Assembly: GCF_000734015.1 (NCBI RefSeq)
Contig: NZ_CP008796.1
Coordinates: forward strand, 1,732,046 to 1,764,045
Direction of reading: 5' to 3'
From: Thermodesulfobacterium commune DSM 2178
Lineage (GTDB): Bacteria; Desulfobacterota; Thermodesulfobacteria; Thermodesulfobacteriales; Thermodesulfobacteriaceae
DNA length: 32,000 bases
In this document: piece after piece, positions 1-32,000 of the stretch
How positions within the stretch are numbered: the stretch's first letter is position 1
How the letters are laid out: each line of letters starts with the position of its first letter
Made by a program: the position numbers and the translations under genes
The notes under the pieces: generated by a model
Database searches by the model: none
What the model saw: the letters and a program-made list of their open reading frames with translations, nothing else
Told to the model about the DNA's origin: nothing

Positions 1-1
1 G

Positions 2-712: not shown

Positions 713-722
713 GAGGATTAAA

Positions 723-5604: not shown

Positions 5605-5605
5605 A

Positions 5606-7591: not shown

Positions 7592-7620
7592 TTGACTTTT
7601 ATACCGGTAAGTTTTAAAAT
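7592..7620 (+). promoter_or_regulatory. Putative sigma70-type promoter for rtcB
   Basis: TTGACT (7592-7597), a 17-nt spacer, then TAAAAT (7615-7620), about 50 nt upstream of ATG 7671 in a 250-bp intergenic gap. Confidence 0.4.
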
Positions 7621-7670
7621 AAAAATAGTTTAAATATTAATACGAAATTTACTTTTGGTAGTTAGGGACT

Positions 7671-9101: not shown

Positions 9102-9123
9102 AATCTCGTTAAAAAGGGGGTAG

Positions 9124-9474: not shown

Positions 9475-9478
9475 GGTT

Positions 9479-10102: not shown

Positions 10103-10108
10103 TGTTTT

Positions 10109-12241: not shown

Positions 12242-12262
12242 GTGTAAACCTCAGGTGAATTT

Positions 12263-12640: not shown

Positions 12641-12681
12641 GAGTTTTAATGTAAAACAAATCCTTAAAAATGCAACCTGGT

Positions 12682-14292: not shown

Positions 14293-14554
14293 GGCAAAGA
14301 TTTTTTAAAAAGTTTTATAAGAAAAATACCAAAAAATTGGCAAAAGTCAAGTAAAATTTTAAAAAAAGTTCTTTTTAAAGATTTTTGGGTTTTAAAAGCG
14401 TAAAAATTATTTTTTTTATCTTTTTTAAGCTTTTTTTAGGTTGTCTAGTAGTTGTGTTTTAACAAAATCTGTATAAAATTTAAAATAAATAGATTAGGAG
14501 GTTCTAAAGATTAACGTTTTCTTAGATTTTGAGGTTGCTACCAAATTAGAATTA

Positions 14555-15262: not shown

Positions 15263-15263
15263 C

Positions 15264-16040
15264 ATGTATCAAGGCGAGGTTATAAAAAACCTTCCTCTTT
15301 CTCAGAACGTTTATCTTTTGAGGGTAAAAACAGATTTAGATATAATCTTTAGTTTTAACCCAGGGCAATTTGTCAAAATCAAAATTAACGAAAGGATTGA
15401 CCCTCTTATTCCCAGGCCTTTTACCATACATGATGTAAAAAAGAATAGTTTTTACGTGCTTTACCAGGTAGTGGGAAAAGGGACCAAAGCTTTGTCTTTG
15501 GTTCAACCAGGAAATAAGATTGAGTTTTTAGGTCCCCTTGGGAAACCCTTTCCTAAGCTTGAAAACTATGTAATCTGTGCAGGAGGCATAGGAATAGCAG
15601 GTTTTATCTATCTTTTAGAAAGCATAAAAAGAAAAACCCATCCCTATGTGTTACCCAAGAAAATTTTTTATGGGGCTCGTACAGCAGAAGACCTGGTTTG
15701 TTATCCCTTTTTAGAGGGTATCGGTACTAAGGTAGAGATAGCCACAGAAGACGGCTCACAAGGCTATAAAGGGTTGATTACCGAACCTTTGATAAAGTAT
15801 TTAGAAAAAAACAAGGTAGACGTGCTTGCCTGTGGTCCTTTGCCTATGTTAAAAGCAGTAGCAAAAATAGCCCAAAGTTTTGGGGTAAAGGCCTATCTTA
15901 CTATGGAAACCTTTCTTTCTTGTGGTACAGGTTTTTGTAAAGGCTGTGTAATTCCGCTTAAAAACGGAAATTATGCTCATCTTTGTATAGAGGGCCCTAC
16001 TCTTTTAGCAGAGGAGATTGACTTTGAGGCCCTATCTTAA
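15264..16040 (+). CDS. pyrK: Dihydroorotate dehydrogenase B electron-transfer subunit (PyrK)
   Basis: 258 aa. FAD-binding RPFTI, NAD-binding-type GGIGIAG, C-terminal 2Fe-2S motif CGTGFCKGC. Sits immediately upstream of and overlapping pyrD. Confidence 0.85.
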   Translation: MYQGEVIKNLPLSQNVYLLRVKTDLDIIFSFNPGQFVKIKINERIDPLIPRPFTIHDVKKNSFYVLYQVVGKGTKALSLVQPGNKIEFLGPLGKPFPKLENYVICAGGIGIAGFIYLLESIKRKTHPYVLPKKIFYGARTAEDLVCYPFLEGIGTKVEIATEDGSQGYKGLITEPLIKYLEKNKVDVLACGPLPMLKAVAKIAQSFGVKAYLTMETFLSCGTGFCKGCVIPLKNGNYAHLCIEGPTLLAEEIDFEALS

Positions 16041-16899
16041 AATCAGGAATCTCGAACTTAAAACACCTCTTATGCTGGCTTCAGGTACCTGGGGCCTTGG
16101 AGAAAACTTAGACCTCTATCTTACTAAGGAAGAAATTAAATCTAACATAGGTGCTTTTGTTTCTAAAGGAATCTCTCGTTTTCCTAAGAAAGGCAACCCC
16201 CCTCCTCGTCTTTATGAAACTCCTTGTGGATTGATCAATTCCATAGGGCTTGAAAACCCGGGTTTAGAGGTCTTTAAAAAAGACTATCTCCCTAAGCTTC
16301 TTTCTTACGAGGTGCCACTCATCATTAACCTTCACGGAGAGGAAGTAGAGGACTTTGTAGCCCTTGCTGAAGGTTTTAAGGAAGAAAAGGTAGATGGTAT
16401 AGAGCTTAACATCTCATGCCCTAACGTTAAGAAGGGTGGTCTAGCCTTTTCCTCTGACCCAAAGGGGGTTAAAACCCTGGTAAAAGAGGTCAGAAAGGTT
16501 TGGGAAAGGTTTTTAGCAGTAAAGCTTTCTCCTGTAGGTCCAGTTTATGAAATAGCCGAAATCTGTGAAAAAGAAGGGGTAGATGCTTTAGTAGTAGCCA
16601 ATACTTATCCTGCTTTAGGGGTGATAGGTTTAGCACCTTTAAAGGTTATCAAAGGAGGTCTCTCAGGTCCTGCCATAAAACCTTTAACCTTAAGGTTGGT
16701 ATACGAACTTGCCCAAAAGGTTAAACTCCCTATCATAGGTAGCGGAGGCATCCTTTCTGGAAAGGATGCTTTAGAATACTTGGTTTGCGGTGCTAAAGCC
16801 TTTCAAATAGGGGTTGCCAACTTGATAGACCCCACTTCTGCTGTAAAAATAATTCAAGAGATGGAGGAGCTAAAAAAGAAACATGGCTTATTTGGTTAG
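16018..16899 (+). CDS. pyrD: Dihydroorotate dehydrogenase, class 1B catalytic subunit (PyrD)
   Basis: 293 aa. LKTPLMLASGTWG, IELNISCPNV, GLSGPAIKP, IIGSGGI. TTG start at 16018 (or 16024) overlaps the end of pyrK. Confidence 0.9.
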   Translation: MTLRPYLKIRNLELKTPLMLASGTWGLGENLDLYLTKEEIKSNIGAFVSKGISRFPKKGNPPPRLYETPCGLINSIGLENPGLEVFKKDYLPKLLSYEVPLIINLHGEEVEDFVALAEGFKEEKVDGIELNISCPNVKKGGLAFSSDPKGVKTLVKEVRKVWERFLAVKLSPVGPVYEIAEICEKEGVDALVVANTYPALGVIGLAPLKVIKGGLSGPAIKPLTLRLVYELAQKVKLPIIGSGGILSGKDALEYLVCGAKAFQIGVANLIDPTSAVKIIQEMEELKKKHGLFG

Positions 16900-17755
16900 A
16901 GGGTTACCTGTAGATAAAAATTTTAGGGTCTATGCGGTTTGTTGTAAAGAGATAGTAGAGGAAGCTCGTCGTCTGCAAGGGTTAAGCCCTGTGGCTTCAG
17001 CTGCGTTGGGAAGGGCTTTAGCAGGGGTGGCTTTACTTTCTGCTGACCTGAAGATAGGTAAGGTCCTTTTGCAGATCAAGGGAGACGGTCCACTCGGTGA
17101 GATTTTAGCAGAAGGTGATTATCAGGGATTTTTAAGGGGAACGGTACAAAATCCTCACGTTTATATAGACCCTATCAACCGAAAACTTCCTGTTGGGCTT
17201 GCGGTTGGAAAAAAAGGTTTTATCTCTGTGGTAAAAGATTTAGGGTTGAAAGAGCCTTATTATGGGTCTGTAGAACTGATTTCAGGAGAAATTGCCGAAG
17301 ACTTGGCTTATTATTTAACCGTTTCTGAACAAATCCCATCTGCCGTAAGTTTGGGGGTTTTGGTTGATAGAGACGGAACCATCCTTGCTGCAGGTGGTTT
17401 TTTGGTCCAAAAACTGCCAGAGGCAACCGAGTCTGAATTAGAAGAAATAGAGGCTAAACTTAAAAATTTCCCTCCTGTTACCTCACTTTTATCTTCAGGT
17501 AAAACCCCAGAAGAGATTTTACAGATGATTTTCCCAAACCTTCAAATATTAGAAAAAAGGCCTTTAGCCTGGAGATGTACCTGTTCTGAAAAAAGGGTAG
17601 AAGAGGTTTTGATAGCCATGGGAAGAGGAGAACTTGAGGGTTTTTTAAAAGAAGGAAAGCCTGTCTCTGTTACCTGTGAATTTTGTAAGAAAACTTATCA
17701 TATTTCCTTGGAAAGGGTTAAAGAACTTTTAAAGGAGGTTATGGATGTTTCTTAG
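16883..17755 (+). CDS. hslO: Redox-regulated chaperone Hsp33
   Basis: 290 aa. Hsp33 fold pattern with the C-terminal zinc centre CTC...(27 aa)...CEFC. Confidence 0.9.
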   Translation: MAYLVRGLPVDKNFRVYAVCCKEIVEEARRLQGLSPVASAALGRALAGVALLSADLKIGKVLLQIKGDGPLGEILAEGDYQGFLRGTVQNPHVYIDPINRKLPVGLAVGKKGFISVVKDLGLKEPYYGSVELISGEIAEDLAYYLTVSEQIPSAVSLGVLVDRDGTILAAGGFLVQKLPEATESELEEIEAKLKNFPPVTSLLSSGKTPEEILQMIFPNLQILEKRPLAWRCTCSEKRVEEVLIAMGRGELEGFLKEGKPVSVTCEFCKKTYHISLERVKELLKEVMDVS

Positions 17756-18017
17756 GTTGATACTCTGGTTGGTTTTGATATTGTTGTTGGTTTTCTTTGT
17801 AGTTTTTAACATAGACCCAAAGGTTAATCTACATATTTTCCCTGGGGTTACTTTGGAAAACATCCCTTTAGCCTTAGTCATCATCATAAGTTTTATTTTA
17901 GGGGTACTTTTTGGAATTATGGTTTCGATTACCCAGATGATAAAGCTAAAACTTGAGATAAGAAAACTGCAGAAAAAGGTTGAAGAAAAACATGAAAATC
18001 CTGAACAGACTCTTTGA
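17745..18017 (+). CDS. LapA/DUF1049-like small inner-membrane protein
   Basis: 90 aa: two hydrophobic helices followed by a K/E-rich coiled tail. Overlaps the hslO stop by 11 nt. Confidence 0.55.
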   Translation: MFLRLILWLVLILLLVFFVVFNIDPKVNLHIFPGVTLENIPLALVIIISFILGVLFGIMVSITQMIKLKLEIRKLQKKVEEKHENPEQTL

Positions 18018-19071
18018 GCTTTTAAACGAAGGGGTAAAAAAAGAGGTTTTCCCTGGTGCAGTTGCAGGGGTTTACTATCAACAGAGGCGATACATAGTTG
18101 GGGCTGGTTATCAGGCTTTAACCCCATATACCGAACCTGTAGAAGAAAACACCATCTTTGACCTTGCCTCCCTTACCAAGCCTTTAGCCTTGGTGTTGGG
18201 ATTTTTAGATTGTTTAGCTAAAAACTCCAAGATAGCAGACCTTTTTTCTCCTGTAAAAAATTACCTGGACCTTAAACCTCCTCTTTCTGAAATTCCCGTT
18301 TATCGTTTTTTTAACCATACCTCAGGTCTCAAAGCATGGTACCCTTTTTATCAGGAAATTTTAGAAAAAAGACCAGAAAAGCCCTTAGAATATATAATAA
18401 GAAAAATAGAAGAAATGCCTTTGGAATATACTCCTGGGGAGAAAAGCTTATATTCAGACCTTGGTTACTTTATGTTAACCTATCTCTTAGAAAACTTATC
18501 TGGAGAACCTTTAGAAAAAATCTTTGAACAGGCTAAAAAAAGAATTTCTTTAGGAAAAAAGTCTTTTATAGGTTTTAATCCTCTAAAAAAAGGAATAGAC
18601 CAGGAATATATAGCCCCTACCTCTGTTTGCCCCTGGGGTAAAAAACTATTGAGAGGAGTTGTTGAAGACGAAAACACCCGGGCTTTGGGTGGGGTTTCTG
18701 GGGTAGCAGGGCTATTTGGTAACATCTACGGAGTTCTTGATGTTTTAGAATTTTTGCTAAAGGCTTATCAACAAGAGGAATCGGTTTTTTCTGAGCATTT
18801 AAGAACTTTTGTAAATTTTAGGGAAAAAAATTCTGAATATGCCTTAGGTTTTATGTTGCCCAATCCTAAGGAAAAAGAAATTTTGAAGGATAAAATTTCT
18901 CCTAATACTTTGAGACACACCGGTTTTACCGGGACCTCCTTTTTGATAGACTTTGACCAGGGAATTATCATCGTACTTTTGTCAAACAGGGTGCATCCTA
19001 CCAGGGACAACCTAAAAATAAGGGATTTTAGGCATTATTTTCATCAACAGGTTATGGAAGCCCTTAACTGA
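17980..19071 (+). CDS. Serine hydrolase, beta-lactamase/PBP4*-like family
   Basis: 363 aa with the SxxK active-site motif (ASLTKPLA). TTG 17980 is the track start; ATG 17992 (MKILNRLF...) is an equally plausible start. Confidence 0.8.
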   Translation: MKKNMKILNRLFELLNEGVKKEVFPGAVAGVYYQQRRYIVGAGYQALTPYTEPVEENTIFDLASLTKPLALVLGFLDCLAKNSKIADLFSPVKNYLDLKPPLSEIPVYRFFNHTSGLKAWYPFYQEILEKRPEKPLEYIIRKIEEMPLEYTPGEKSLYSDLGYFMLTYLLENLSGEPLEKIFEQAKKRISLGKKSFIGFNPLKKGIDQEYIAPTSVCPWGKKLLRGVVEDENTRALGGVSGVAGLFGNIYGVLDVLEFLLKAYQQEESVFSEHLRTFVNFREKNSEYALGFMLPNPKEKEILKDKISPNTLRHTGFTGTSFLIDFDQGIIIVLLSNRVHPTRDNLKIRDFRHYFHQQVMEALN

Positions 19072-20122: not shown

Positions 20123-21525
20123 CTTAACTTAAAAATAATACTATTATCAAAAGGAGGGGTAAAATGCCTAAGGTAGGTGTATATGTATGTCATTGTGGAG
20201 AAAACATTAAGGGTGCGGTTAATATCCAGGAAGTAGTAGAGTTTGCTAAGACCTTACCTGATGTAGTGGTTGTGAGGGACTATCAGTTTATGTGTTCTGA
20301 CCCTGGGCAAGAGTTGATCAAGAATGATATTAAAGAAGGGCTGGTTGACAGGGTTGTGGTTGCTGCTTGTACTCCAAGGACTCATGAGGCTATCTTTAGG
20401 GTAGCTGTTGAGTCAACTGGTTTGAACAAATATTTTTGTGAGATGGCTAACATAAGAGACCAGGATAGCTGGGCTCATTGGCATGATAAAGAGGGGGCTA
20501 CCAAAAAGGCTAAAAGGCTTGTTGCCAGTGCGGTGGCTAAGGTAAGATTGGCAGAGCCTTTAGAAGATCGCTTTCAGGATGCAGAAAAGTCGGTTTTGGT
20601 GGTAGGAGGTGGGATCGCAGGTATCTTTGCTGCTTTAGACCTGGCAACGATAGGTTTAAAGGTTTATCTGGTAGAAAAACAGCCTTCTATCGGTGGGGTT
20701 ATGGCCAAGCTTGACAAGACCTTTCCTACGATGGACTGTTCAGCTTGTATCTTAACCCCAAAGATGGTTGAGGTTGCCCAGCATCCTAACATCGAACTTA
20801 TCACCTATGCCGAGGTAGAAGATGTTAAGGGTTATGTAGGAAACTTTGAGGTTACCATCAGGAAAAAAGCCAGATATGTAGACTGGGATAAGTGCACAGG
20901 TTGTGGTCACTGTATGAACATTTGTCCTTCCAAGGCTCCAAACGAGTTTAACCTTGGTTTGGATAAAAGACCAGCCATTTACATAGAGTTTCCACAGGCA
21001 GTGCCTAAGAAGGCGGTGATAGACGCAGACAACTGTTTGTATTTTAAGACTTTGAGAAAGACAGGTAAGACAGCCTGTCAGATCTGTCAGAAGGGTATAC
21101 CTAGCAAGAACATCGAGGGTTGTCCGGCGGGGGCGATCAACTATGAGGACAAGGATGAGTTTATCAAGGTAAAGGTAGGGGCTGTAATACTGGCTACAGG
21201 GTTTAAGGTTATGGACAAACATCATTTTAAGGAATACTCCCCTAATTGTCCTGATGTTCTTACTGCCCTTGAGTTTGAAAGACTTATTTCTGCTACAGGG
21301 CCTACGGAAGGGCAGCTTAAAAGACTTTCTGACGGGCAAAAGCCCAAAAAATTAGCCTTCATCTCTTGTGTAGGAAGCAGAGATGAAAGACATCACAGTT
21401 ATTGTTCAAAGGTTTGTTGTATGTATATGTTTAAGCATGCCAAGATTCTCAAAGAGAAGTATCCAGACATAGACCTATATCTTTTCTTCATAGACGTGAG
21501 GACTGCAGGAAAGGATTTCGAAGAG

Positions 21526-21533
21526 TTTTATGT
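21526..21533. repeat. Target-site duplication, left copy (TTTTATGT)
   Basis: An 8-bp direct repeat abuts both IS ends. A single copy is present at the equivalent site of hdrA2 (…GAATTTTATGTTTAC…). Confidence 0.85.
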
Positions 21534-22872
21534 GACACTTGTCAAGAGAATTGTGTCTCCTTATAAAATCTCTTTACAAACATTTGCCTCAATTCGTATA
21601 AAGCAGACTTAATTAAAGGAAGTGGTTTTTGCCATCTCGTTTTCTGAATCCGACTTACTGTTATGTATATCGCAACCTCTGCTGTCTTGATTGATTGAAA
21701 ATATCCCCCTGTATTTACCCTTATCAGCTCTATCCTGCTATTTATATTCTCAACCACATTCGTCGTGTATATATACCTCCTCACCCCCTCAGGATATTTC
21801 TTATAAACAAAATAATGCTCCTTCTTTTTCAAAAGTCCCTTTATATAAGCTGGATACTTCTTCTCATAACTCTTACATAATTCCTCAAATCTATTTAAGG
21901 CCCTCTCATACTCCTCTATCCTCTTTATAATGCTTAACTCCTCATAAAATTTTTTAGCATCCTGCTTAGACATGTTCCTGTTGATGTTCCTTTGCATGTG
22001 TACAAAACAAAGCTGATGATCTGTCTCAGGAAAGAGGGCTTTTATGGCTTGAGTAAGGCCAGGAAAATCATCACTCACTATTACCATAACCCTCTTAACT
22101 CCCCTCTTTATCAAATCATTAAGTATCTGGAGCCAGTCCTCCTTCGTCTCTGAACCAAAATAAATGTAATAAGAAAGTAAATTTTTTCTTCCCTCCATAT
22201 CTATCCCGATGATATTATAAATAACTGCTTTTCTGATTCTGTTGGCTTCGGTATCTTTTATCTGAGTATGATAAGCGTCTATAAACATAGCAAACAAATT
22301 TTCTGGCAATTCTTTGGTTTTTAATTCTTTGGCTTGGTTATACAATTCTTCTTTAATTTCTTCTATTTGTTCTGGGGAGTAGGGGAGTTTCATAGATTGC
22401 AAGAGGGCTTTGATTTTATTGGGGGAGTAGCTTTGGAGAACGAGGTTAAGGATAAAGTCCTGGAAGGATTCATCAGCTTTTTGCCATTCAGGAGGAAGAA
22501 TAGCAGGTCTGAATTCAGATTTTCTATCTCTTGGGACAGAGATACCAAGGTTACCTAAGAAACAGGCAAGTTGTCTTTCATAGTAACCATTAGCTTTATT
22601 ATCAATACTATCTCTAAGGAATATTTCTCTTTCTTTTTTCATGAGAGCGTTTAAGAGGAGTGCAGCAGCCATTTTGATACCCTCTTTTGATTCAATTTTT
22701 GAGATTTCACTTAAAACTTTTTCTAAATCTAAGTCTAAGTTTTCCATTTTACAGACCTCCTGGTTAGTTTAGTCTTTTAGGTTTTATGTTATCATTAATT
22801 TAAAAAATATTAAAAATTTTTATTATGCCTCTAAAATATTTTATTAAAAGACACAATTTATATTCTACTCCC
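21534..22872 (-). mobile_element. IS256-family insertion sequence (1,339 bp), intact
   Basis: Boundaries come from comparison with the uninterrupted paralog hdrA2 and from the flanking 8-bp direct repeat TTTTATGT. Imperfect terminal repeats share AATTGTGTCT...TAAAAT (compare the AATTGTGT core of IS256 ends). There is a single 401-aa transposase ORF. Confidence 0.9.
21542..22747 (-). CDS. IS256-family (Mutator-type, Transposase_mut) DDE transposase
   Basis: 401 aa. Candidate DDE residues in MFIDAYH, IVSDDFPGL and TTNVVENINSRIE; the family motif CFVHMQRN is present. Confidence 0.9.
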   Translation of the reverse strand: MENLDLDLEKVLSEISKIESKEGIKMAAALLLNALMKKEREIFLRDSIDNKANGYYERQLACFLGNLGISVPRDRKSEFRPAILPPEWQKADESFQDFILNLVLQSYSPNKIKALLQSMKLPYSPEQIEEIKEELYNQAKELKTKELPENLFAMFIDAYHTQIKDTEANRIRKAVIYNIIGIDMEGRKNLLSYYIYFGSETKEDWLQILNDLIKRGVKRVMVIVSDDFPGLTQAIKALFPETDHQLCFVHMQRNINRNMSKQDAKKFYEELSIIKRIEEYERALNRFEELCKSYEKKYPAYIKGLLKKKEHYFVYKKYPEGVRRYIYTTNVVENINSRIELIRVNTGGYFQSIKTAEVAIYITVSRIQKTRWQKPLPLIKSALYELRQMFVKRFYKETQFS

Positions 22873-22880
22873 TTTTATGT
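22873..22880. repeat. Target-site duplication, right copy (TTTTATGT)
   Basis: See the left copy. An 8-bp TSD is typical of IS256-family elements. Confidence 0.85.
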
Positions 22881-23541
22881 TTCTACCAAACAACTTGGAG
22901 CCAAGGTAATAAGGGGAGGAAGGGTTTCAGCGGTAGATGTAAAACCTGATGGTAAGTTAAGGGTCAGGGCATATGACAACGACCTTTGCAGTCCGGTAGA
23001 GGTGGATGTAGACATGGTGGTTTTGGCAACAGCAATTGAGCCAGGTCCAGACACAGAGAAACTTGGAAGGCTTTTTAGTGCAAGTTGTGGTAGGGAAGGA
23101 TTTATCAGAGAAGTTCACACCAAACTTTATCCAGTAGATACCGCTTCTAAAGGTGTTTTTGTCTGCGGTTGTGTACAGGGACCTAAGGACATTCCTGATT
23201 CTGTTTCTCAAGCTAAAGCAGCAGCTGCTTCAGCAGCCGCAACCGTTATCCCAGGGAAGATTAAGTTTGAGGCTATAGCTGCCGAGGTGATAAGGGATAA
23301 GTGTAGTAGTTGTGGGGTATGTGTACAGCTTTGTCCATATAACGCGATAGTGCTTGAGGAGTATAACGGGGTTTATAAGGCCAAGGTTGAGCCAGCCCTT
23401 TGTGCTGGATGTGGAACCTGTGCAGCAGCTTGTCCTTCTAAGGCTATCATCTTTCATGGATTCTCTACCGAACAAGTGCTTGCGCAAATAGAGGCCATAG
23501 TGGAAGACTATCCAAATCTATAAACCAAAGGGGGTAGGATA

Positions 23542-24084
23542 ATGGAGAAGGAAGTGAATGTTATAAAGTTAGACGAGGAGTTTATGAAGGAGTTTTGGGA
23601 AGAGCTTGAGGCGATGGGGATGCCTGTTAAGGAGTTGAGGGAGTGTATCCAGTGTGGTAGGTGTGCGGCAACTTGTCCGATGGCGTTAGCTGGGTTGGAG
23701 TATTTTATCAAGAGGATAGTGCATGCGAGCATGTTGGGGTTGAAGGAGATATTTTTGGATGATTCATCGGTGTGGGGGTGTCAGAGTTGTAACCGGTGTG
23801 TGGAGGTATGTCCGATGGACATTAAGCCATATGAGTTGATACAGGCGATAAGGAGGGTGTGTTTTAGGGAGTATGCGATGCCATCTAACACGATAGATGG
23901 TTTGAGGAACTATTATGAGAGGGGGCATGCGGTGATAGTTAAGGGATTTGAGGAGAGGAGGAAGAAGGTGGGGTTACCTGAGATGCCACCTACGGTGATA
24001 GGGAATGAGGAGATGAGGAAGAAGTTTCAGGAGGTAATGAAGCAGACAGCGTTAGCAGAGGTAGCACCGTTTCCACTTGACTAA
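23542..24084 (+). CDS. hdrC: Heterodisulfide reductase subunit C
   Basis: 180 aa with two 4Fe-4S ferredoxin motifs, CIQCGRCAATCP and CQSCNRCVEVCP. SD AAGGGGG upstream. Confidence 0.9.
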   Translation: MEKEVNVIKLDEEFMKEFWEELEAMGMPVKELRECIQCGRCAATCPMALAGLEYFIKRIVHASMLGLKEIFLDDSSVWGCQSCNRCVEVCPMDIKPYELIQAIRRVCFREYAMPSNTIDGLRNYYERGHAVIVKGFEERRKKVGLPEMPPTVIGNEEMRKKFQEVMKQTALAEVAPFPLD

Positions 24085-24102
24085 AGAAAAAGGAGGGAAG
24101 AG

Positions 24103-25005
24103 ATGAAGAGGGTAGGATTGTTTTTAGGATGTAACATACCGTTGAGGAGGCCGGATATAGAGTATTCGATGAGGTATTTGTTGAAGGAGTTGGGGGTGGA
24201 GGTAGTGGATTTAGAGGGAGCGACATGTTGTCCGGCGTTTGGGACGATGCCATCGGTGGATTTAGTGGGGTGGTGTGTGGGATCAGCGTGGAACATGGCG
24301 ATAGCAGAGGGTAAGGGATTAGAGGTGATGGTAACGGGGTGTGGTAGTTGTTATGGGAGTTTGAATGAGGCGAGATATCACATGGAGAAGCATCCTGAGA
24401 TAAAGGAGAAGGTTAACGAGATACTGGGAAGTGTGGGTATGAGGTATGAGGGGAAGGTGAAGGTGTACAACATATACAATTATATATATGATTTTATTGG
24501 GTTAGAGGAGTTGAGGAAGGCGGTGAAGTATCCGTTGAATGGGATGGTATGTGGGGTGCAGGTAGGGTGTCACAATTTATGGCCGAGCAAGGCGTATCCG
24601 GCGAATGATGAGAATACGTTTCAGCCGAGGAGGTTGAGGGAGATATGTGAGGCGTTAGGAGGGGTAGCGCCGTGGTATAGCATGATGACAGATTGTTGTG
24701 GTATGGGTGCGTTGGGTAGTTTAGCGAGGGACAAGTCTTGGAGTTTGTTTAAGAAGAAGGCGAGTAAGATGATAGAGGAGATAAATCCTGAGGTATTTGT
24801 GACGGGGTGTAGTAGTTGTTTGTTGAGGTTTGACAACGATCAGGCTCAGATGAAGAAGGAGGGGGTAATAGATTTTGAGGTACCGGCGGTGCATGTGGCG
24901 CAGTTGGTTGCGTTGGCGTTGGGGGCGGAGCCGGAGAAGGCGGTAGGTTTGGCAGAGGTGCCAGTAGACAAGGTGGTAGAAAAAATAAGAGCAGGAGGTA
25001 AGTGA
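24103..25005 (+). CDS. hdrB: Heterodisulfide reductase subunit B
   Basis: 300 aa with two CCG-type Cys-rich domains (GATCCPAFG; MTDCCGMGA plus GCGSCY/GCSSC). SD AGGAGGG upstream. Confidence 0.9.
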   Translation: MKRVGLFLGCNIPLRRPDIEYSMRYLLKELGVEVVDLEGATCCPAFGTMPSVDLVGWCVGSAWNMAIAEGKGLEVMVTGCGSCYGSLNEARYHMEKHPEIKEKVNEILGSVGMRYEGKVKVYNIYNYIYDFIGLEELRKAVKYPLNGMVCGVQVGCHNLWPSKAYPANDENTFQPRRLREICEALGGVAPWYSMMTDCCGMGALGSLARDKSWSLFKKKASKMIEEINPEVFVTGCSSCLLRFDNDQAQMKKEGVIDFEVPAVHVAQLVALALGAEPEKAVGLAEVPVDKVVEKIRAGGK

Positions 25006-25006
25006 T

Positions 25007-25417
25007 ATGAGTTGGGAGCCAAAGATAGTGGTTATAGCTTGTAACTGGTGTACCTATGCTGCGGCAGACCTGGCAGGTAGTTTAAGATATAGTTATCCAC
25101 CTACAGCATATATAGTAAGGGTTCCCTGTAGTGGTAGGGTAGAGCCTGAGTTTATAGTAGAGGCTTTAAAAACAGGAGCAGACGCTGTGTTAGTGGGTGG
25201 CTGACCTCCTGGGGACTGTCATTACCGGTCAGGTAATTACAAGGCATTGAGGCGTTTTAAGCTTTTGAAGAGGGTGTTAGAGGAGTTGGGAGTGGAAGGA
25301 GACAGGGTGAGGCTTGAGTGGATATCAGGTAGTGAGGGTAAGAAGTTTGCGGACATAATAACGGAGATGGATGCCAAGGTAAGGGAACTAGGACCAAATC
25401 CAATGAAGGGGGTATAG
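25007..25417 (+). CDS. mvhD: Hydrogenase delta subunit MvhD/VhuD-like, selenocysteine-containing (UGA at 25202-25204 read through)
   Basis: The ORF track stops at ...DAVLVGG. The same frame continues after TGA as PPGDCHYRSGNYKALRRFKLLKRVLEELGVEGDRVRLEWISGSEGKKF..., completing the MvhD pattern G-[C/U]-xxGDCHY, and ends at TAG 25415-25417, 3 nt before the mvhG ATG. A SECIS-like hairpin lies 12 nt after the UGA. Confidence 0.8.
25217..25241 (+). promoter_or_regulatory. SECIS-like stem-loop for mvhD UGA
   Basis: UGU-C-AUUACC [GGUCA] GGUAAU-U-ACA: 3 bp, a C/U mismatch, 6 bp, then a 5-nt loop containing GGU. It starts 12 nt 3' of the UGA, the position and loop type expected for a bacterial SECIS. 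Confidence 0.65.
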
Positions 25418-25420
25418 GAG

Positions 25421-26377
25421 ATGAGTAAGCCTAAGTTAGCATATTACCTGGCAGGAGGATGTGCAGGTTGTGATATAAGTTTGGTAGATTTAGCTGATTT
25501 TTTGGTGGATGTGGTTAGTGCGGTGGACATAGTGTTTTTTGCGCCTACACTTGTGGATGTGAAGTATAAGGATTTTGAGGCATTGCCAGATGGGTCGGTG
25601 GATGTGGGTTTGTTGACAGGTAACATAAGGAACAAGGAACATGAGCATATGGCGAAGGTGATGAGGGCGAAGTGTAAGGTGTTGATAGCGTATGGTATAT
25701 GTGCGAGTTTAGGTGGTATCAAGGGTTTGGTTAATTTGTATAGTAATCAGGAGTTGTTGGAGAAGGCGTATAGGGATACGTTTAGTACAGACAATCCTAC
25801 AGGGGAGTTACCGAGTCCCAAGTATGTGGTAGATGGGAAGTATGAGTTGGAGTTGCCGGAGTTGACGGAGGCCAGAACGTTGGATCAGGTGGTGGAGGTG
25901 GATTATTACATAGGAGGGTGTCCGCCGCATTATGAGCATGTGAAGGCGGCGTTGGTTGCGTTGTTAGAGGGTAAGTTACCGCCGAGGGGTAGTTGGATAA
26001 CGATGGGGCATGCGGTGTGTGAGGTATGTTCGAGGAACCCTGTGTTGAGGGGGGAGAAGAAGAAGCCTGTATTAGAGGTTAGGAGGGTGATAGAAGGGGG
26101 AGTAGAGGAGGAGGCATGTTTGCTTGAGGCGGGGTATTTGTGTTTAGGTCCTGTTACACAGGGAGACTGTGGAGCGAGTTGTTTGAAGGTGAACGTGCCG
26201 TGTAGGGGATGTGGAGGGCCGATACCAGGGGTAAGGGATTATGGTTTGAGGGCGATAAGTGCGATAGCGAGTGCATTGGAAAACGAGGAGTTGGTAGACA
26301 GGATAGAGGACCCTGTGAGGTTGTTTTACCGGTATAGTTTGCCAGGGTCTATGATAGGGAAGAGGCTTGGAAAGTAG
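25421..26377 (+). CDS. mvhG: F420-non-reducing [NiFe]-hydrogenase small subunit (MvhG-like)
   Basis: 318 aa. N-terminal GGCAGCDISLVD and distal Fe-S motifs (GGCPP, CEVC, CLGPVTQGDCGASC, CRGCGGP). Confidence 0.85.
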   Translation: MSKPKLAYYLAGGCAGCDISLVDLADFLVDVVSAVDIVFFAPTLVDVKYKDFEALPDGSVDVGLLTGNIRNKEHEHMAKVMRAKCKVLIAYGICASLGGIKGLVNLYSNQELLEKAYRDTFSTDNPTGELPSPKYVVDGKYELELPELTEARTLDQVVEVDYYIGGCPPHYEHVKAALVALLEGKLPPRGSWITMGHAVCEVCSRNPVLRGEKKKPVLEVRRVIEGGVEEEACLLEAGYLCLGPVTQGDCGASCLKVNVPCRGCGGPIPGVRDYGLRAISAIASALENEELVDRIEDPVRLFYRYSLPGSMIGKRLGK

Positions 26378-26412
26378 GTAAGAAGATAAAAAACAGAGAG
26401 GAGGGGAAGGGT

Positions 26413-27876
26413 ATGCAGAGGATAGAGATAAATCCCATGACAAGGCTTGAGGGTCATGGGAAGATAACGATATTTTTGGATGACAAGGGGAATGTGGACA
26501 ATGCCTTTTGGCAGGTAGTAGAGTTTATGGGATATGAGAAGTTTTTGATAGGTATGCCTATAGAGGAGGTACCAAGGACAGTAAGTACCGTCTGTGGGGT
26601 ATGTAGGGCTGTTCATTTTATGGCCTCGTTGAAGGCCGCAGATGAGGTATATGGGGTAAAGCCTACGGAGACGGCGAGGAAGTTGAGGGAGTTGTTTTAT
26701 TATGCGCATTATGTAGAGGACCACATGGAGATCATATATGCGTTGGGGTTGCCTGATTTTGTTTGTGGGCCTACGGCATCTCCAGCAGAGAGGAACTTGG
26801 TTGGGTTGATTATGAAGGTGGGAGTTGATGTAGGAAGAGATGTTTTGAAGAAGAGATTTGCTGCTGTTAGGATCTTTGAGATCCTTGGAGGAAGGCCAAG
26901 CCATCCAGTGGCAGCGATACCCGGGGGATGGAGCAAGAGGCTGAAGGAGGAGGAAAGGCAGGAGATACTGAGGTATGCGGATGAGTGTGTGGAGTTAGGG
27001 AAGTTTACGCTTAAGGCGTTTAAGGATTTGGTGTTAAGTAATCCTCAGTATGTGGAGTTGATAAAGGGGGACATTTACAAGGTGGTGACGAATTATTTGG
27101 GAACGGTGGATGAGGCTGGGAAGGTAACCTATTATGATGGTACACAGGTGTTTGTGGACACGAAGGGTAATGAGATAGGTAGGTTTAGTGGTAAGGAGTA
27201 TTTGGAGTGGATAGCAGAGAGGACGTTGCCGTGGAGTTATCAGAAGGCACCGTACATTAAGAAGTTAGGTTGGAAGGGGATAGTGGATGGAGAGGGAACG
27301 AGTTTATACAGTGTGGGGCCGCTAGCGAGGTTTAACGTGGGGAATGGATTTGACACACCTGGTGCGCAGGAGGCGTATGAGGAGATGGTAGAGTTTTTTG
27401 GAGGGAAGCCTGTGCATAACATACTGGGTTATCACTGGGCGAGGGCGATAGAGTTGTTACATTGTGCGGAGAAGGTGAAGGAGCTTGCGTCAGACGAGAG
27501 TATCACAGCTCCTGACGTGAGGCAGGAGTTAGGTGAGGCATTAGGAGAGGGAGTAGGGATTGTTGAGGCAGCGAGGGGAACGCTTATTCATCATTACAAG
27601 ACAGACAGTAAGGGTATAGTAACTGACGCAAACATCATAGTTGCAACCACCCACAACAAAGGGTCTATAAACATAGCGATCAAGAGGGCGGCAGAGAATT
27701 TTATCAAGGAAGGAAAGGTAGATGAGGGAATTTTAAACTTGGTAGAGATGGCTTACAGGCCCTATGACCTTTGTCTTGCCTGTTCTACCCACACCTTACC
27801 TGGGAAGTTGCCTGTGCAGATAGACATCTACACCAAGGACGGAGAGCTGGTAAAAAGTTTGAGAAACTTTAAATAA
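26413..27876 (+). CDS. mvhA: F420-non-reducing [NiFe]-hydrogenase large subunit (MvhA-like)
   Basis: 487 aa. N-terminal RLEGHG and Ni-binding CGVCRAVH; C-terminal Ni-binding DLCLACSTH (both Cys, not Sec). Confidence 0.9.
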   Translation: MQRIEINPMTRLEGHGKITIFLDDKGNVDNAFWQVVEFMGYEKFLIGMPIEEVPRTVSTVCGVCRAVHFMASLKAADEVYGVKPTETARKLRELFYYAHYVEDHMEIIYALGLPDFVCGPTASPAERNLVGLIMKVGVDVGRDVLKKRFAAVRIFEILGGRPSHPVAAIPGGWSKRLKEEERQEILRYADECVELGKFTLKAFKDLVLSNPQYVELIKGDIYKVVTNYLGTVDEAGKVTYYDGTQVFVDTKGNEIGRFSGKEYLEWIAERTLPWSYQKAPYIKKLGWKGIVDGEGTSLYSVGPLARFNVGNGFDTPGAQEAYEEMVEFFGGKPVHNILGYHWARAIELLHCAEKVKELASDESITAPDVRQELGEALGEGVGIVEAARGTLIHHYKTDSKGIVTDANIIVATTHNKGSINIAIKRAAENFIKEGKVDEGILNLVEMAYRPYDLCLACSTHTLPGKLPVQIDIYTKDGELVKSLRNFK

Positions 27877-27900
27877 AATTCAAATTTTCTGATCTCAATT

Positions 27901-27931
27901 AAGTAGGGGGATCTCCCCCTACTTTCTTTTA
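27901..27931 (+). terminator. Rho-independent terminator after mvhA
   Basis: An 11-nt arm AAGTAGGGGGA (27901-27911) pairs perfectly with TCCCCCTACTT (27914-27924), followed by TCTTTT. It lies 25 nt after the mvhA stop. Confidence 0.75.
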
Positions 27932-28142
27932 ATCTATTGCTTTTAAAATCTTAAATTAAAACTGACAGGTTTTCAAATACACCTGTTCAAAAAGTGTCAT
28001 TTAGGATAGCTCTTCATGTGTAAACTGTGTTTTGTATAAATATAAAAAGTAAAAATTTTAAAAAACAAATAAAAATGTTTAAATTTTTTAGAAAAGTTAA
28101 ATAAAAAAAGGAAAAAATAAGAAAAAAAGCTTTTAAGTCTAT

Positions 28143-28171
28143 TTGACTTTGATTATTAGTATTTTATAAAT
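28143..28171 (+). promoter_or_regulatory. Putative promoter of hdrA2
   Basis: TTGACT (28143-28148), a 16-nt spacer, then TATAAA (28165-28170). It is embedded in TCTATTTGACTT (28138-28149), identical to the motif upstream of hdrA1. A long A-rich tract lies upstream. Confidence 0.4.
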
Positions 28172-28216
28172 AAATAATGAAGGGACTAATAGAATATCAA
28201 AATAAGGGGGTTAGAC

Positions 28217-29059
28217 ATGCCAAAGGTTGGGGTTTATGTATGTCATTGTGGTGAGAACATTAAAGGTGGGCTTAATATCCAGGAGTTGGTAGAGTTTGCC
28301 AAAACATTGCCTGATGTGACAGTAGTGAGAGATTATTTCTTCATGTGTTCTGACCCTGGGCAGGAGTTGATCAAGAATGATATTAAAGAGGGTTTAGTTG
28401 ACAGGGTGGTAGTTGCTGCTTGTACTCCAAGAACTCATGAGCCTATTTTTAGGGCAGCGGTAGAGTCAGCAGGTTTAAACAAGTATTTTTGTGAAATAGC
28501 TAACATAAGAGACCAGAATACCTGGGCTCACTGGGGGAAGATTAAAGAGGCTACAGACAAGGCTAAAAGGATCATAAAAAGCGCGGTAGCTAAGGTAAGA
28601 TTGGCTGAACCTTTAGAAGACCGTTTTGAACCTATGGAAAAGTCTGTTTTGGTGGTAGGTGGTGGAATTGCAGGTATGTTTGCTGCTTTAGACTTAGCTA
28701 ACATGGGTTTAAAGGTTTATCTGGTAGAGAAAAGGCCTTCTATAGGCGGGAACATGGCTATGCTTGACAAAACGTTCCCGACTATGGACTGTTCGGCTTG
28801 AATACTCACCCCCAAGATGGGCGAGGTCGCCCAGCATCCTAACATCGAACTTATCACCTATGCCGAGGTAGAAGATGTTAAGGGTTATGTAGGTAACTTT
28901 GAAGTTACCATAAGAAAAAAAGCCAGGTATGTAGACTGGGATAAGTGTACAGGTTGTGGTCACTGTATGAACATTTGTCCTTCCAAGGCTCCAAACGAGT
29001 TTAACCTTGGTCTGGATAAGAGACCGGCTATTTATATACAATTTCCTCAGGCAGTGCCC
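28217..29059 (+). pseudogene. hdrA: Heterodisulfide reductase subunit A, Sec-type copy (hdrA2), 5' part (codons 1-281) ending at a rearrangement junction
   Basis: Colinear with hdrA1 20164..21006 without indels and roughly nine-tenths identical by eye. In-frame TGA 28799-28801 lies exactly where hdrA1 has Cys (DCSA-C/U-ILTPKM). Homology ends after ...FPQAVP at 29059, where the sequence switches to the reverse complement of the hdrB 3' end. Confidence 0.85.
28816..28835 (+). promoter_or_regulatory. SECIS-like stem-loop for hdrA2 UGA
   Basis: Core 28818-28833 is UGGGCG [AGGU] CGCCCA: a 6-bp GC-rich stem with a GGU-containing tetraloop, starting 16 nt 3' of the UGA. The Cys-type copy has UGGUUG AGGU UGCCCA at the same place, which cannot form the full stem. 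Confidence 0.6.
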
Positions 29060-29062
29060 ATA

Positions 29063-29965
29063 TCACTTACCTCCTGCTCTTATTTTTTCTACCACCTTGT
29101 CTACTGGCACCTCTGCCAAACCTACCGCCTTCTCCGGCTCCGCCCCCAACGCCAACGCAACCAACTGCGCCACATGCACCGCCGGTACCTCAAAATCTAT
29201 TACCCCCTCCTTCTTCATCTGAGCCTGATCGTTGTCAAACCTCAACAAACAACTACTACACCCCGTCACAAATACCTCAGGATTTATCTCCTCTATCATC
29301 TTACTCGCCTTCTTCTTAAACAAACTCCAAGACTTGTCCCTCGCTAAACTACCCAACGCACCCATACCACAACAATCTGTCATCATGCTATACCACGGCG
29401 CTACCCCTCCTAACGCCTCACATATCTCCCTCAACCTCCTCGGCTGAAACGTATTCTCATCATTCGCCGGATACGCCTTGCTCGGCCATAAATTGTGACA
29501 CCCTACCTGCACCCCACATACCATCCCATTCAACGGATACTTCACCGCCTTCCTCAACTCCTCTAACCCAATAAAATCATATATATAATTGTATATGTTG
29601 TACACCTTCACCTTCCCCTCATACCTCATACCCACACTTCCCAGTATCTCGTTAACCTTCTCCTTTATCTCAGGATGCTTCTCCATGTGATATCTCGCCT
29701 CATTCAAACTCCCATAACAACTACCACACCCCGTTACCATCACCTCTAATCCCTTACCCTCTGCTATCGCCATGTTCCACGCTGATCCCACACACCACCC
29801 CACTAAATCCACCGATGGCATCGTCCCAAACGCCGGACAACATGTCGCTCCCTCTAAATCCACTACCTCCACCCCCAACTCCTTCAACAAATACCTCATC
29901 GAATACTCTATATCCGGCCTCCTCAACGGTATGTTACATCCTAAAAACAATCCTACCCTCTTCAT
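29063..29965 (-). CDS. hdrB: Heterodisulfide reductase subunit B, second copy (identical to 24103..25005)
   Basis: The 300-aa translation is identical to the first copy. It lies within the perfect inverted repeat arm. Confidence 0.85.
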   Translation of the reverse strand: MKRVGLFLGCNIPLRRPDIEYSMRYLLKELGVEVVDLEGATCCPAFGTMPSVDLVGWCVGSAWNMAIAEGKGLEVMVTGCGSCYGSLNEARYHMEKHPEIKEKVNEILGSVGMRYEGKVKVYNIYNYIYDFIGLEELRKAVKYPLNGMVCGVQVGCHNLWPSKAYPANDENTFQPRRLREICEALGGVAPWYSMMTDCCGMGALGSLARDKSWSLFKKKASKMIEEINPEVFVTGCSSCLLRFDNDQAQMKKEGVIDFEVPAVHVAQLVALALGAEPEKAVGLAEVPVDKVVEKIRAGGK

Positions 29966-29983
29966 CTCTTCCCTCCTTTTTCT

Positions 29984-30526
29984 TTAGTCAAGTGGAAACG
30001 GTGCTACCTCTGCTAACGCTGTCTGCTTCATTACCTCCTGAAACTTCTTCCTCATCTCCTCATTCCCTATCACCGTAGGTGGCATCTCAGGTAACCCCAC
30101 CTTCTTCCTCCTCTCCTCAAATCCCTTAACTATCACCGCATGCCCCCTCTCATAATAGTTCCTCAAACCATCTATCGTGTTAGATGGCATCGCATACTCC
30201 CTAAAACACACCCTCCTTATCGCCTGTATCAACTCATATGGCTTAATGTCCATCGGACATACCTCCACACACCGGTTACAACTCTGACACCCCCACACCG
30301 ATGAATCATCCAAAAATATCTCCTTCAACCCCAACATGCTCGCATGCACTATCCTCTTGATAAAATACTCCAACCCAGCTAACGCCATCGGACAAGTTGC
30401 CGCACACCTACCACACTGGATACACTCCCTCAACTCCTTAACAGGCATCCCCATCGCCTCAAGCTCTTCCCAAAACTCCTTCATAAACTCCTCATCCAAC
30501 TTTATAACATTCACTTCCTTCTCCAT
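29984..30526 (-). CDS. hdrC: Heterodisulfide reductase subunit C, second copy (identical to 23542..24084)
   Basis: The 180-aa translation is identical to the first copy. It lies within the perfect inverted repeat arm. Confidence 0.85.
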   Translation of the reverse strand: MEKEVNVIKLDEEFMKEFWEELEAMGMPVKELRECIQCGRCAATCPMALAGLEYFIKRIVHASMLGLKEIFLDDSSVWGCQSCNRCVEVCPMDIKPYELIQAIRRVCFREYAMPSNTIDGLRNYYERGHAVIVKGFEERRKKVGLPEMPPTVIGNEEMRKKFQEVMKQTALAEVAPFPLD

Positions 30527-30556
30527 TATCCTACCCCCTTTGGTTTCTTTCTTTTA

Positions 30557-31709
30557 TTAATCAACCGTTATAGCTCTAATCTGCTCTATTATCTGCTCGG
30601 TGGTAAATCCATGGAAAACGATGGCTTTGGAAGGACAAGCTGCTGCACAGGTTCCACATCCAGCACAAAGGGCTGGCTCAACCTTGGCCTTATAAACCCC
30701 TTTATACTCTTCAAGCACTATCGCGTTATATGGACAAAGCTGTATACATACACCACAACTACTACACTTATCCCTTATCACCTCGGCAGATATAGCTTCA
30801 AACCTGATTTTACCTGGTAATACCAAAGCTGCCGCCGCAGAAGAAGCAGCCCTTGATTGAGCGATAGATTCTGGAATATCCTTAGGCCCCTGCACACATC
30901 CTGCGATAAATACGCCTTTAGCAGAAGTTTCTACTGGATAAAGTTTGGTGTGAACTTCTCTGATAAATCCTTCCCTACCACAACTGGCACTAAAAAGCCT
31001 TCCAAGTTTCTCTGTGTCTGGACCTGGCTCAATTGCTGTTGCCAAAACCACCATGTCTACATCCACCTCTACCGGACTGCAAAGGTCGTTGTCATATGCC
31101 CTGACCCTTAACTTACCATCAGGTTTTACATCTACCGCTGAAACCCTTCCTCCCCTTATCACCTTGGCTCCAAGCTTCTTGGTGTAAACATAAAATTCCT
31201 CAAAATCCTTTCCTGCAGTCCTCACATCTATAAAGAAAAGATAAAGGTCTATGTCTGGATACTTCTCTTTGAGAATCCTTGCATGTTTCATGATATACAT
31301 ACAACAAACTTTAGAACAATAAGTATGATATCTTTCGTCTCTACTTCCTACACAGGCTATAAAAGCCATTTTCTTTGGTTTTTGCCCGTCAGAAAGTCTT
31401 TTAAGCTGCCCCTCCGTAGGACCTGTAGGAGAAAGAATACGTTCAAACTCCATAGCAGTAACCACATCTGGACAGTTAGGAGAATATTCTTTAAAATGAT
31501 ATTTTTCCATCGGTTTAAAACCTGTTGCCAAGATCACAGCCCCTACCTTTACCTTGATAAACTCATCCTTGTCCTCATAGTTGATCGCCCCCGCCGGACA
31601 ACCCTCGATGTTCTTGCTAGGTATACCCTTCTGACAGATCTGACAGGCTGTCTTGCCTGTCTTTCTCAAAGTCTTAAAATACAAACAGTTGTCTGCATCT
31701 ATCACTGCC
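30557..31709 (-). pseudogene. hdrA: hdrA2 3' part (about codons 284-666), inverted relative to its 5' part and fused upstream to an IS end and a GGDEF fragment
   Basis: The minus-strand translation from 31708 reads AVIDADNCLYFKTLRK... through to ...IRAITVD-stop. It is colinear with hdrA1 21013..21533 + 22881..23523 and uninterrupted at the hdrA1 IS site (EEFYVYTKKLGAKV). Confidence 0.85.
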
Positions 31710-31742
31710 TTATAAGGAGACACAATTCTCTTGACAAGTGTC
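31710..31742 (-). mobile_element. Solo 33-nt terminal fragment of the IS256-family element
   Basis: The reverse complement equals GACACTTGTCAAGAGAATTGTGTCTCCTTATAA, identical to 21534..21566 (the end nearest the transposase stop). No IS interior follows it. Confidence 0.85.
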
Positions 31743-32000
31743 CCTACTTCCTCAAAAGGGTAGGTCGCTATACTCTGTCTGATTCTTTCAGCTATAACCA
31801 AAGCTTCTTCTTTAATAGTCCTAGGACAAAGGATTACAAACTCCTCTCCTCCCCATCGAGCTGGCAAATCGGTTTGCCTGATGTTTTCTTTTATCAAACG
31901 GGAAACCTCTTTTAACACATAATCTCCCCTATCATGCCCATAAGTATCGTTAATAACTTTAAAATTATCGAGGTCAAAAAGTATAACAGAAAAGGAGGTC
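31743..32000 (-). pseudogene. GGDEF-domain (diguanylate cyclase) gene fragment, 3'-truncated by the IS end; 5' end outside window
   Basis: The minus-strand frame reads ...FSVILFDLDNFKVINDTYGHDRGDYVLKEVSRLIKENIRQTDLPARWGGEEFVILCP...YPFEEVG and then runs directly into the IS end. The distal part of the GGDEF domain is missing. Confidence 0.75.

Follow-up and report, generated by a model that had tools for sequence, protein, structure and literature searches.

Why does a bacterium carry hdrC and hdrB twice, in opposite orientations, on either side of a single set of hydrogenase genes? The question is raised by a stretch of 32,000 nucleotides (nt) from Thermodesulfobacterium commune DSM 2178 (contig NZ_CP008796.1, positions 1,732,046 to 1,764,045; hereafter the window, in whose own numbering we give all coordinates). 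Here two copies of the heterodisulfide reductase genes hdrC-hdrB form a long inverted repeat around the hydrogenase genes mvhDGA and the 5′ part of a second hdrA gene. The original prediction, made from the sequence of the window, was that recombination between the arms would flip the segment between them and let one hydrogenase cassette be shared by two Hdr modules. Our comparison with related loci leads to a different answer: the inverted repeat is probably the scar of a recent rearrangement of two tandem operons whose hdrC-hdrB genes had been homogenized by gene conversion, and not a switch.

The inverted repeat and its arms

A repeat search found an inverted pair at 22873-25009 and 29059-31195 that is 2,137 nt long, 96% identical overall and 4,049 nt apart; its length and identity are far above chance expectation. 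The arms proper lie inside this pair. Arm 1 (23522-25009, plus strand) contains hdrC (23542-24084) and hdrB (24103-25005) and reaches the ATG of mvhD, and arm 2 (29059-30546, minus strand) contains hdrB (29063-29965) and hdrC (29984-30526). Pairing the arms base by base gave 2 mismatches, at 23571/30497 and 23574/30494, both of them synonymous and at the third positions of hdrC codons 10 and 11, and the longest perfect run between them is 1,435 bp (23575-25009). The repeat had been described as perfect over 1,488 bp; its coordinates were right, its perfection holds over 1,435 bp only, and the repeat itself stands after the full nucleotide alignment of the arms that had been named as a check. 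HdrC (180 amino acids [aa]) and HdrB (300 aa) do have the same translation from either arm, as predicted.

Outside the arms the pairing continues as a mosaic between the 3′ ends of the two hdrA genes (22873-23521 versus 30547-31195), with near-identical patches at 22909-23081, 23083-23138, and 23368-23438 and strongly diverged stretches between them. The adjoining hdrA sequences had been said to differ at many positions, which is true of the diverged patches and overlooks the near-identical ones interspersed with them, through which the homology extends to 2,137 nt. The inner limit of homology is abrupt, at 25009/29059, the G of the mvhD start codon. The 4,049-bp spacer (25010-29058) has the coordinates and the content given in the original prediction. 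It holds mvhD (25007-25417, plus strand), mvhG (25421-26377, plus strand), and mvhA (26413-27876, plus strand), then an intergenic region of 23% GC (27877-28216) in which a strong hairpin resembling a terminator (27901-27924) is followed by a promoter-like site upstream of hdrA2 (28149-28178), and finally hdrA2 codons 1 to 281.

Both hdrA genes of the window are interrupted

hdrA1 is broken at codon 457 by an insertion sequence (IS) of the IS256 family. Its 5′ part (20164-21533, plus strand, codons 1 to 457), which has NCBIfam HdrA2/HdrA hits and the cysteine (Cys)-type motif DCSAC, and its 3′ part (22873-23523, plus strand), which is also the outer mosaic section of the left arm and pairs with 30547-31195, flank a 1,339-bp element (21534-22872, minus strand). 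The transposase open reading frame (ORF) of the element (21542-22747, minus strand) matches NF033543 transpos_IS256 with 275.7 bits (cutoff, 150) and PF00872 with 215.7 bits. A perfect 8-bp target duplication, TTTTATGT, lies at 21526-21533 and 22873-22880, and the same IS is present at 98.7 to 100% identity in 7 other contigs, in differing contexts. Hence, the element has the DDE transposase, the target duplication of 8 to 9 bp and the multiple copies of an IS256 family member. Most of those 7 contigs lack matching target duplications around the IS, which hints at IS-mediated rearrangements elsewhere.

Without the IS, hdrA1 is an intact 670-aa ORF that differs by 3 nt from its counterpart in L020, one of the 49 related loci that we fetched for comparison and cite by their L numbers. 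The 5′ part of hdrA1 is 99.96% identical to L020, whose hdrA1 is unbroken (670 aa), and the insertion site is empty in 13 of the fetched loci. At the 3′ end of hdrA1, the otherwise 99.98% identical L010, a contig of a metagenome-assembled genome (MAG), has about 100 nt fewer than the window (L010:9355-9420 versus window 23357-23522), and no hdrA gene was called at that position; the shortfall is possibly a mis-assembly of the MAG at the edge of the repeat.

hdrA2 is one gene in two pieces. Its 5′ fragment (28217-29058, plus strand, codons 1 to 281), which has the selenocysteine (Sec)-type motif DCSAU with the TGA codon at 28799-28801, ends with ...GGCAGTGCC at the junction J1 (29058/29059). 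The 3′ fragment (30547-31709, minus strand) runs from about codon 284 at 31709 down to the stop codon at 30557-30559, and its portion 30547-31195 forms the mosaic outer section of the right arm. When the two pieces are joined through TAAGAA, they give a 666-aa ORF that has the Sec TGA as its sole stop and is 7 nt off L020, so that the loss at the break amounts to these 6 nt only, between codons 281 and 284. At the junction J2 (31709/31710), which shows a 2-nt microhomology, hdrA2 meets, at about codon 284, the inner side of a 33-nt terminal end of the same IS (31710-31742, minus strand). The outer terminus of this IS end abuts, at its exact terminal nucleotide, a truncated ORF with a GGDEF (diguanylate cyclase) domain (31743-32000, minus strand; TIGR00254 and PF00990) that runs off the window. 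The GGDEF fragment, the IS end, and the hdrA2 3′ piece are fused in one frame on the minus strand, and this piece of hdrA2 has neither a promoter nor the Sec codon.

Judged from their reading frames, both hdrA genes at this locus are inactivated, and both disruptions are recent, because neither gene carries another lesion. An intact hdrA, which a functional HdrABC-MvhADG complex requires, is not among the two interrupted copies of the window. The IS in hdrA1, the break in hdrA2, and the inverted hdrA2-3′-hdrC-hdrB block are all private to the window among the contigs examined. Across the 49 loci, the gene after hdrB is mvhD in 22 cases, antisense hdrA2 takes this position in arm 2 of the window only, and the sequences of J1 and J2 were found nowhere outside the window in this set. 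A search of Joint Genome Institute (JGI) metagenome contigs gave 0 exact matches to J1 and to the junction of GGDEF fragment and IS, and no matching record was found for the ORF that spans the GGDEF/IS/hdrA2 junction.

Related loci have two complete operons in tandem

The closest genomes are those of T. thermophilum (97%) and T. hveragerdense (95 to 96%). L020, a 154-kb metagenome contig that matches the window at 99.96% identity upstream of the locus, shows what an undisturbed arrangement looks like. Its first part reads proC (minus strand), hdrA1 (670 aa, Cys), hdrC, hdrB, mvhD (Cys), mvhG, and mvhA (Cys, 487 aa); it then continues with hdrA2 (TGA), hdrC, hdrB, mvhD (TGA), mvhG, mvhA (TGA), and hycI, followed by PHO4. 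These are two complete operons, head to tail and in direct orientation, each with its own mvhDGA. The link from mvhA through the intergenic region to an hdrA2 that runs past the break recurs beyond L020 in L022 to L026, L028, and L029, and the unbroken sequence at the hdrA2 break site is present in 10 contigs (L001, L020, and L022 to L029). At the sites that are diagnostic for the operons of L020, the hdrA1 gene of the window is operon-1-like and its split hdrA2 is operon-2-like, essentially throughout.

A single-operon form, hdrA1-hdrC-hdrB-mvhDGA-hycI, occurs in L042 (Logan SRR29026321) and L037; by its gene order, this form is the expected deletion product of recombination between tandem operons. 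Five more distant loci (L002, L004, L005, L007, and L008) have one hdrACB-mvhDGA match each within the DNA fetched for those loci.

Concerted evolution of hdrC-hdrB

The near-identity of the arms could in principle mean that hdrC-hdrB was duplicated very recently in this genome instead of being homogenized by gene conversion, and the perfect identity over 1,435 bp with sharp ends on both sides would suit that idea. The related loci make it very unlikely. The two hdrC-hdrB copies are 0 to 1 nt apart within L020 and 2 nt apart within the window, whereas the window differs from L020 at 23 to 24 nt, from L003 at 37 nt, and from L001 at 52 nt, and lineages differ from one another by 1.6 to 3%. An exact repeat with the same bounds (about 23522-24839), in a lineage-specific version, exists in the un-rearranged tandem loci of other lineages; copies that are identical within a lineage and divergent between lineages are found in L020, in the JGI sample series, and in L003. 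The last of these, a free-standing 1,314-nt contig of a T. thermophilum draft that corresponds to window 23526-24839, looks like a collapsed repeat unit, and the first site that tells the operons of L020 apart is 24840. Six metagenome contigs stop 127 to 128 nt inside the repeat, on the hdrA1 side (L047 and L048) or on the hdrA2 side (L022, L024, L026, and L028). Contigs cut in this way are characteristic of an exact repeat in an assembly graph built with k=127, and the outer boundary of this repeat lies at 23522 as in the window. On either side, the hdrA and mvh paralogues show mosaic patches and a divergence that locally reaches about 15%, which also argues against a recent duplication.

The identity within lineages, the divergence between them, and the conserved bounds of the tract together indicate concerted evolution by gene conversion, with the sharp tract boundaries, diverged flanks, and mosaic patches typical of this process. 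The conversion of hdrC-hdrB is, on this comparison of sequences, older than the inversion. The prediction had allowed for either a very recent duplication or ongoing gene conversion, and only the second of these agrees with what the un-rearranged tandem lineages show.

Exchange between the operons extends beyond hdrC-hdrB. Compared with L020, mvhDGA of the window (25010-27876) is a patchwork of operon-1 and operon-2 alleles, and a Sec-type mvhD and a Cys-type mvhA therefore stand behind the Cys-type hdrA1. Public contigs contain several combinations of mvhD (Cys or Sec) with mvhA codon 64 (Cys or Sec), behind either type of hdrA. We considered repeated flipping, that is, reciprocal crossovers, as the source of the mosaic. 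However, the window and a second assembly, L021 (GCA_000746435.1, scaffold KN050845.1), have the same mosaic and not complementary ones, which indicates conversion and not reciprocal exchange.

Is the spacer an invertible switch?

A functional switch would flip 25010-29058 by recombination between the arms, so that one mvhDGA serves the hdrA1 and the hdrA2 module alternately. Some observations seem to invite this explanation: a near-identical inverted repeat of 1.4 to 2.1 kb is a good substrate for RecA, as is established, for example, for tufA/tufB; the promoter region of hdrA2 lies inside the spacer; and linkages between hdrA2-3′, hdrCB, and mvhD do exist in L013, L017, and L018. We nevertheless regard a functional switch as extremely unlikely. 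The linkages of hdrA2-3′ to mvhD (L001, L013, L017, and L018) are those of operon 2 of the tandem form, no other contig among the 49 loci has hdrB followed by antisense hdrA2-5′, and only one genome has the arrangement. In relatives, two Hdr modules do not depend on a common hydrogenase cassette; each operon has its own. In either isomer of the window, moreover, hdrA1 is disrupted by the IS and the hdrA2 3′ piece is without the first 283 or so codons of the gene, among them the Sec codon.

The flipped isomer would place mvhDGA behind GGDEF′-IS′-hdrA2 (about codon 284 to the end)-hdrC-hdrB, with the 5′ half of hdrA2 still apart and facing the other hdrB end. The proposed Sec-type hdrA2′ module of the flipped isomer is thus a minus-strand piece without Sec codon or promoter, and the sharing of one cassette by two Hdr modules does not fit two broken hdrA genes and relatives with two full operons. 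The features that define known invertons, namely, short repeat sites, a nearby invertase, and switching between functional alternatives, are absent from the window. No site-specific recombinase or invertase was found among the annotated ORFs of the window, as the prediction had also said, and the sole enzyme of mobile DNA is the IS256-family DDE transposase. What does hold is that a near-perfect inverted repeat of 1.4 kb is, in principle, a substrate for homologous recombination. The spacer could flip in this way, and nothing indicates that such flipping has a regulatory use.

How the rearrangement may have arisen

In the normal arrangement, an all-Cys operon is followed, head to tail, by an all-Sec operon with hycI, and gene conversion keeps a tract of about 1.3 kb in hdrC-hdrB identical between the two, with hdrA, mvhD, and mvhA retaining their Cys/Sec differences. 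The sequence of the window shows hdrA2 split between codons 281 and 284 and the hdrA2-3′-hdrC-hdrB block inverted, so that it lies between the hdrA2 5′ fragment and the 33-nt IS256-family end with the truncated GGDEF ORF. We attribute this to a recent rearrangement private to this lineage, for which any mechanism is our proposal. hdrA1 has, in addition, taken up a copy of this IS. The inverted repeat would, in this scenario, be a by-product of inverting one member of a direct repeat that already existed and was already homogenized.

Several observations weigh against this explanation. A simple two-break inversion fails, as the second mvhDGA-hycI is not beside the inverted block; the structure calls for a third breakpoint or a second event. 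The two sides of J1 are joined bluntly, without microhomology, and no independent sequence confirms this junction. Among 5.8 billion database proteins the GGDEF fragment found no close homologue, the best match being 58% identical. The path of L020 through its two identical 1.3-kb repeats may have been chosen by the assembler, although such a choice would alter the assignment of mvhDGA to hdrA and not the tandem order. Finally, L021 has the same hdrA2 ends with other partners and a gap of 1,325 Ns; either the cultures are not the same or one assembly, if not both, must be in error. As a separate observation, almost all other genes that were looked up recur in many metagenomes as identical or nearly identical copies, unlike the GGDEF fragment.

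Two simple routes were tried and rejected. An in-place inversion of 29059-31717 restores hdrA2-hdrC-hdrB and predicts a second mvhD where the 33-nt IS end and the GGDEF fragment lie. Recombination between two inverted full copies of the IS does not account for the absence of the IS from J1 and the mere 33 nt at J2. With a blunt J1, a 2-nt microhomology at J2, and three breakpoints, the structure is compatible with a single complex illegitimate event, for example template switching, or with an inversion to which an IS-associated change was added later.

L021 also bears on the question whether the rearrangement is real. Within its first 14 kb, this scaffold is 100% identical to parts of the window, 27459-29058 among them, with the pieces in a scrambled order; its hdrA2 5′ piece ends at the same ...GGCAGTGCC and its 3′ piece starts at the same GGCAGTGATAG as in the window. 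Its inner pieces end at positions corresponding to 29058, 30630, 30987, and 31709, which are the end of the arm, the edges of a 71-nt and a 173-nt patch identical between hdrA1 and hdrA2, and the end of the IS. An 11-nt filler in L021, TTGGTTGTGGA, matches nothing. We infer that L021 is a set of repeat-bounded pieces wrongly concatenated and that it supports the hdrA2 break independently, not the partners that it gives to the broken ends. It has a second mvhDGA-hycI behind only the last 838 nt of hdrB. If L021 is from the same strain, the genome has a third, partial copy of hdrB, and a conservative inversion with two breaks does not describe the event.

An assembly or cloning artefact would mean that the true order is tandem or otherwise different and that the joins at 29058/29059 and 31709/31710 are chimeric or were mis-pathed in finishing. 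J1 and J2 are unique to this record, J1 is blunt, the adjoining GGDEF fragment is without close relatives, and the near-identical L021 has, at this point, an N gap and different partners, all of which would be expected of an artefact. Yet novel junctions need reads, and a path choice through a collapsed repeat cannot make them. The pieces of L021 end at the boundaries predicted from the window, including both ends of the hdrA2 break, as an intact hdrA2 presumably would not, and the IS meets the GGDEF fragment at its exact terminal nucleotide, as in a true insertion. Hence, we consider an artefact unlikely, though the most serious of the alternatives. The T. commune DSM 2178 genome was Sanger finished with verification of repeats (PMC4319511).

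Selenocysteine and cysteine versions of the subunits

hdrA2 reads DCSA-TGA where hdrA1 reads DCSAC, and its ORF is conserved downstream of the TGA, as expected of a Sec/Cys pair. Likewise, mvhD of the window has GG-TGA (TGA at 25202-25204) where the operon-1 copy of L020 has GGC, and the encoded protein is identical to the operon-2 MvhD of L020. Hairpins with a GGU(C) loop, GGUC in the case of mvhD, follow the TGA codons of hdrA2 and mvhD by 14 to 17 nt, with fold energies that are not significant in comparison with shuffled sequences. Genes of the Sec machinery (selA, selB, selD, and tRNA-Sec) are absent from the window, although no search aimed at them was made.

In related loci (L010, L012 to L014, L020, L021, and L027) codon 64 of the operon-2 mvhA gene is an in-frame TGA (L020:15092-15094), beyond which the ORF is conserved; the homologous codon of the window (26602-26604) is TGT (Cys). 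This TGA stands where the N-terminal Ni-ligand motif RxCGxC has its second Cys (..STICGV-TGA-RGVHF..), and the C-terminal motif keeps its Cys (DLCFAC). A 2026 review of selenoproteomes lists Sec in MvhA/VhuU at the C-terminal UxxC only (PMC13188914). The TGA at mvhA codon 64 may, to judge from the reading frame, be an undescribed position of Sec in [NiFe] hydrogenases. A full-text literature search that combined Thermodesulfobacterium, heterodisulfide reductase, and selenocysteine gave no results, and the tandem pair of Cys and Sec Hdr-Mvh operons may also be undescribed so far.

A combined reading, in which the spacer does flip appreciably as an accidental RecA toggle and the tandem Cys/Sec pair is a bacterial selenium-responsive isoenzyme system, is improbable. 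If true, it would mean that the flipped hdrC-hdrB-mvhDGA is driven from the GGDEF′-hdrA2′ fusion, bypassing the IS-disrupted hdrA1. It would also mean that the selenium-responsive set, with its purposely homogenized HdrCB, includes an MvhA in whose N-terminal Ni-binding CxxC motif Sec takes the place of the second Cys.

Gene assignments and other features of the window

Genes were named from NCBIfam and Pfam profile scans of the window ORFs; the larger ORFs were annotated directly or by way of Pfam hits already computed for proteins of L010 and L040 that are identical or nearly so. By domain, the full six-subunit set is present: HdrA, HdrC (2x[4Fe-4S]), HdrB (CCG x2), MvhD (FlpD), MvhG, and MvhA (NiFe). 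All Hdr and Mvh hits score under the NCBIfam equivalog cutoffs for methanogens (e.g., 209.8 versus 345 for HdrB), and the proteins are therefore of a bacterial Hdr/Mvh-like type. The TGA codons of hdrA and mvhD could at first sight suggest an origin in Methanococcales; we rejected this because the GGDEF domain and the nearest loci point to Thermodesulfobacterium.

The hdr-mvh genes (20164-31709) have a GC content of 43 to 48%, compared with 37.7% for the upstream 19 kb (1-19000). Farther upstream (723-4597), cobN (CobN/Mg-chelatase) is divided between an ORF at 723-3128, which matches profile positions 1 to 655, and a directly adjoining one at 3128-4597, which matches positions 676 to 1088; a frameshift, a pseudogene, or a naturally split gene could account for this. 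A gene for a 536-aa LysM/NlpC-P60 protein contains, at 13461-14109, a sequence of about 109 nt in three direct copies (76 to 79% identical), which probably encode the repeated LysM domains of the protein.

Significance of the locus

If the explanation that we favor is right, what appeared to be an invertible hydrogenase cassette is the scar of a rearrangement, and an active IS256-family element together with an illegitimate rearrangement has recently knocked out both hdrA paralogues. The mosaic mvhDGA, the single-operon deletion forms, and the inversion of the window suggest that hdr-mvh operons recombine freely. The locus is also a clean natural case of concerted evolution confined to the subunits that have no Sec/Cys difference. 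At the same time, it calls for caution, as short-read assemblies routinely break or mis-join this locus.

Comparison with known systems

The tufA and tufB genes of Salmonella and Escherichia coli are duplicates in inverse orientation that coevolve by gene conversion, and recombination between them inverts the intervening segment. The likeness lies in repeats of about 1.2 to 1.4 kb from the gene of an essential enzyme that are kept identical or nearly so by RecA-type conversion, in flanks that diverge, and in a spacer that can flip. However, the normal orientation of the hdrC-hdrB copies is direct (tandem), and the inverted state is private to one genome and destroys genes.

The locus shares with IS256-driven rearrangements the transposase, the 8-bp target duplication, the multiple copies, the inactivation of a gene, and the presence of an IS end at a junction. 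It differs in that J2 has 33 nt of the IS and J1 has none, which is not the textbook outcome of recombination between inverted copies. With fimS, Hin, the invertons of Bacteroides, and shufflons it has in common a promoter-bearing segment between inverted repeats. In contrast to these, its arms are 1.4 to 2.1 kb of coding sequence and not sites of 10 to 40 bp, the window encodes no invertase, the second orientation was not seen in 49 loci, and no intact alternative gene is produced.

The tandem Cys/Sec Hdr-Mvh pair itself belongs to kinds of system that are already known. It resembles the vhu/vhc, fru/frc, and hdrA_U/hdrA_V sets of Methanococcus, in which Sec and Cys versions of HdrA, MvhD/VhuD, and the hydrogenase large subunit exist in parallel, and, as in those sets, the Sec copy has its in-frame TGA exactly at the Cys of the paralogue. 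Here, the host is a bacterium, Thermodesulfobacterium, and the versions come as complete tandem operons with identical HdrCB; furthermore, the operon-2 MvhA of related loci has its predicted Sec in the N-terminal CxxC and not in the C-terminal UxxC of the described proteins (PMC13188914).

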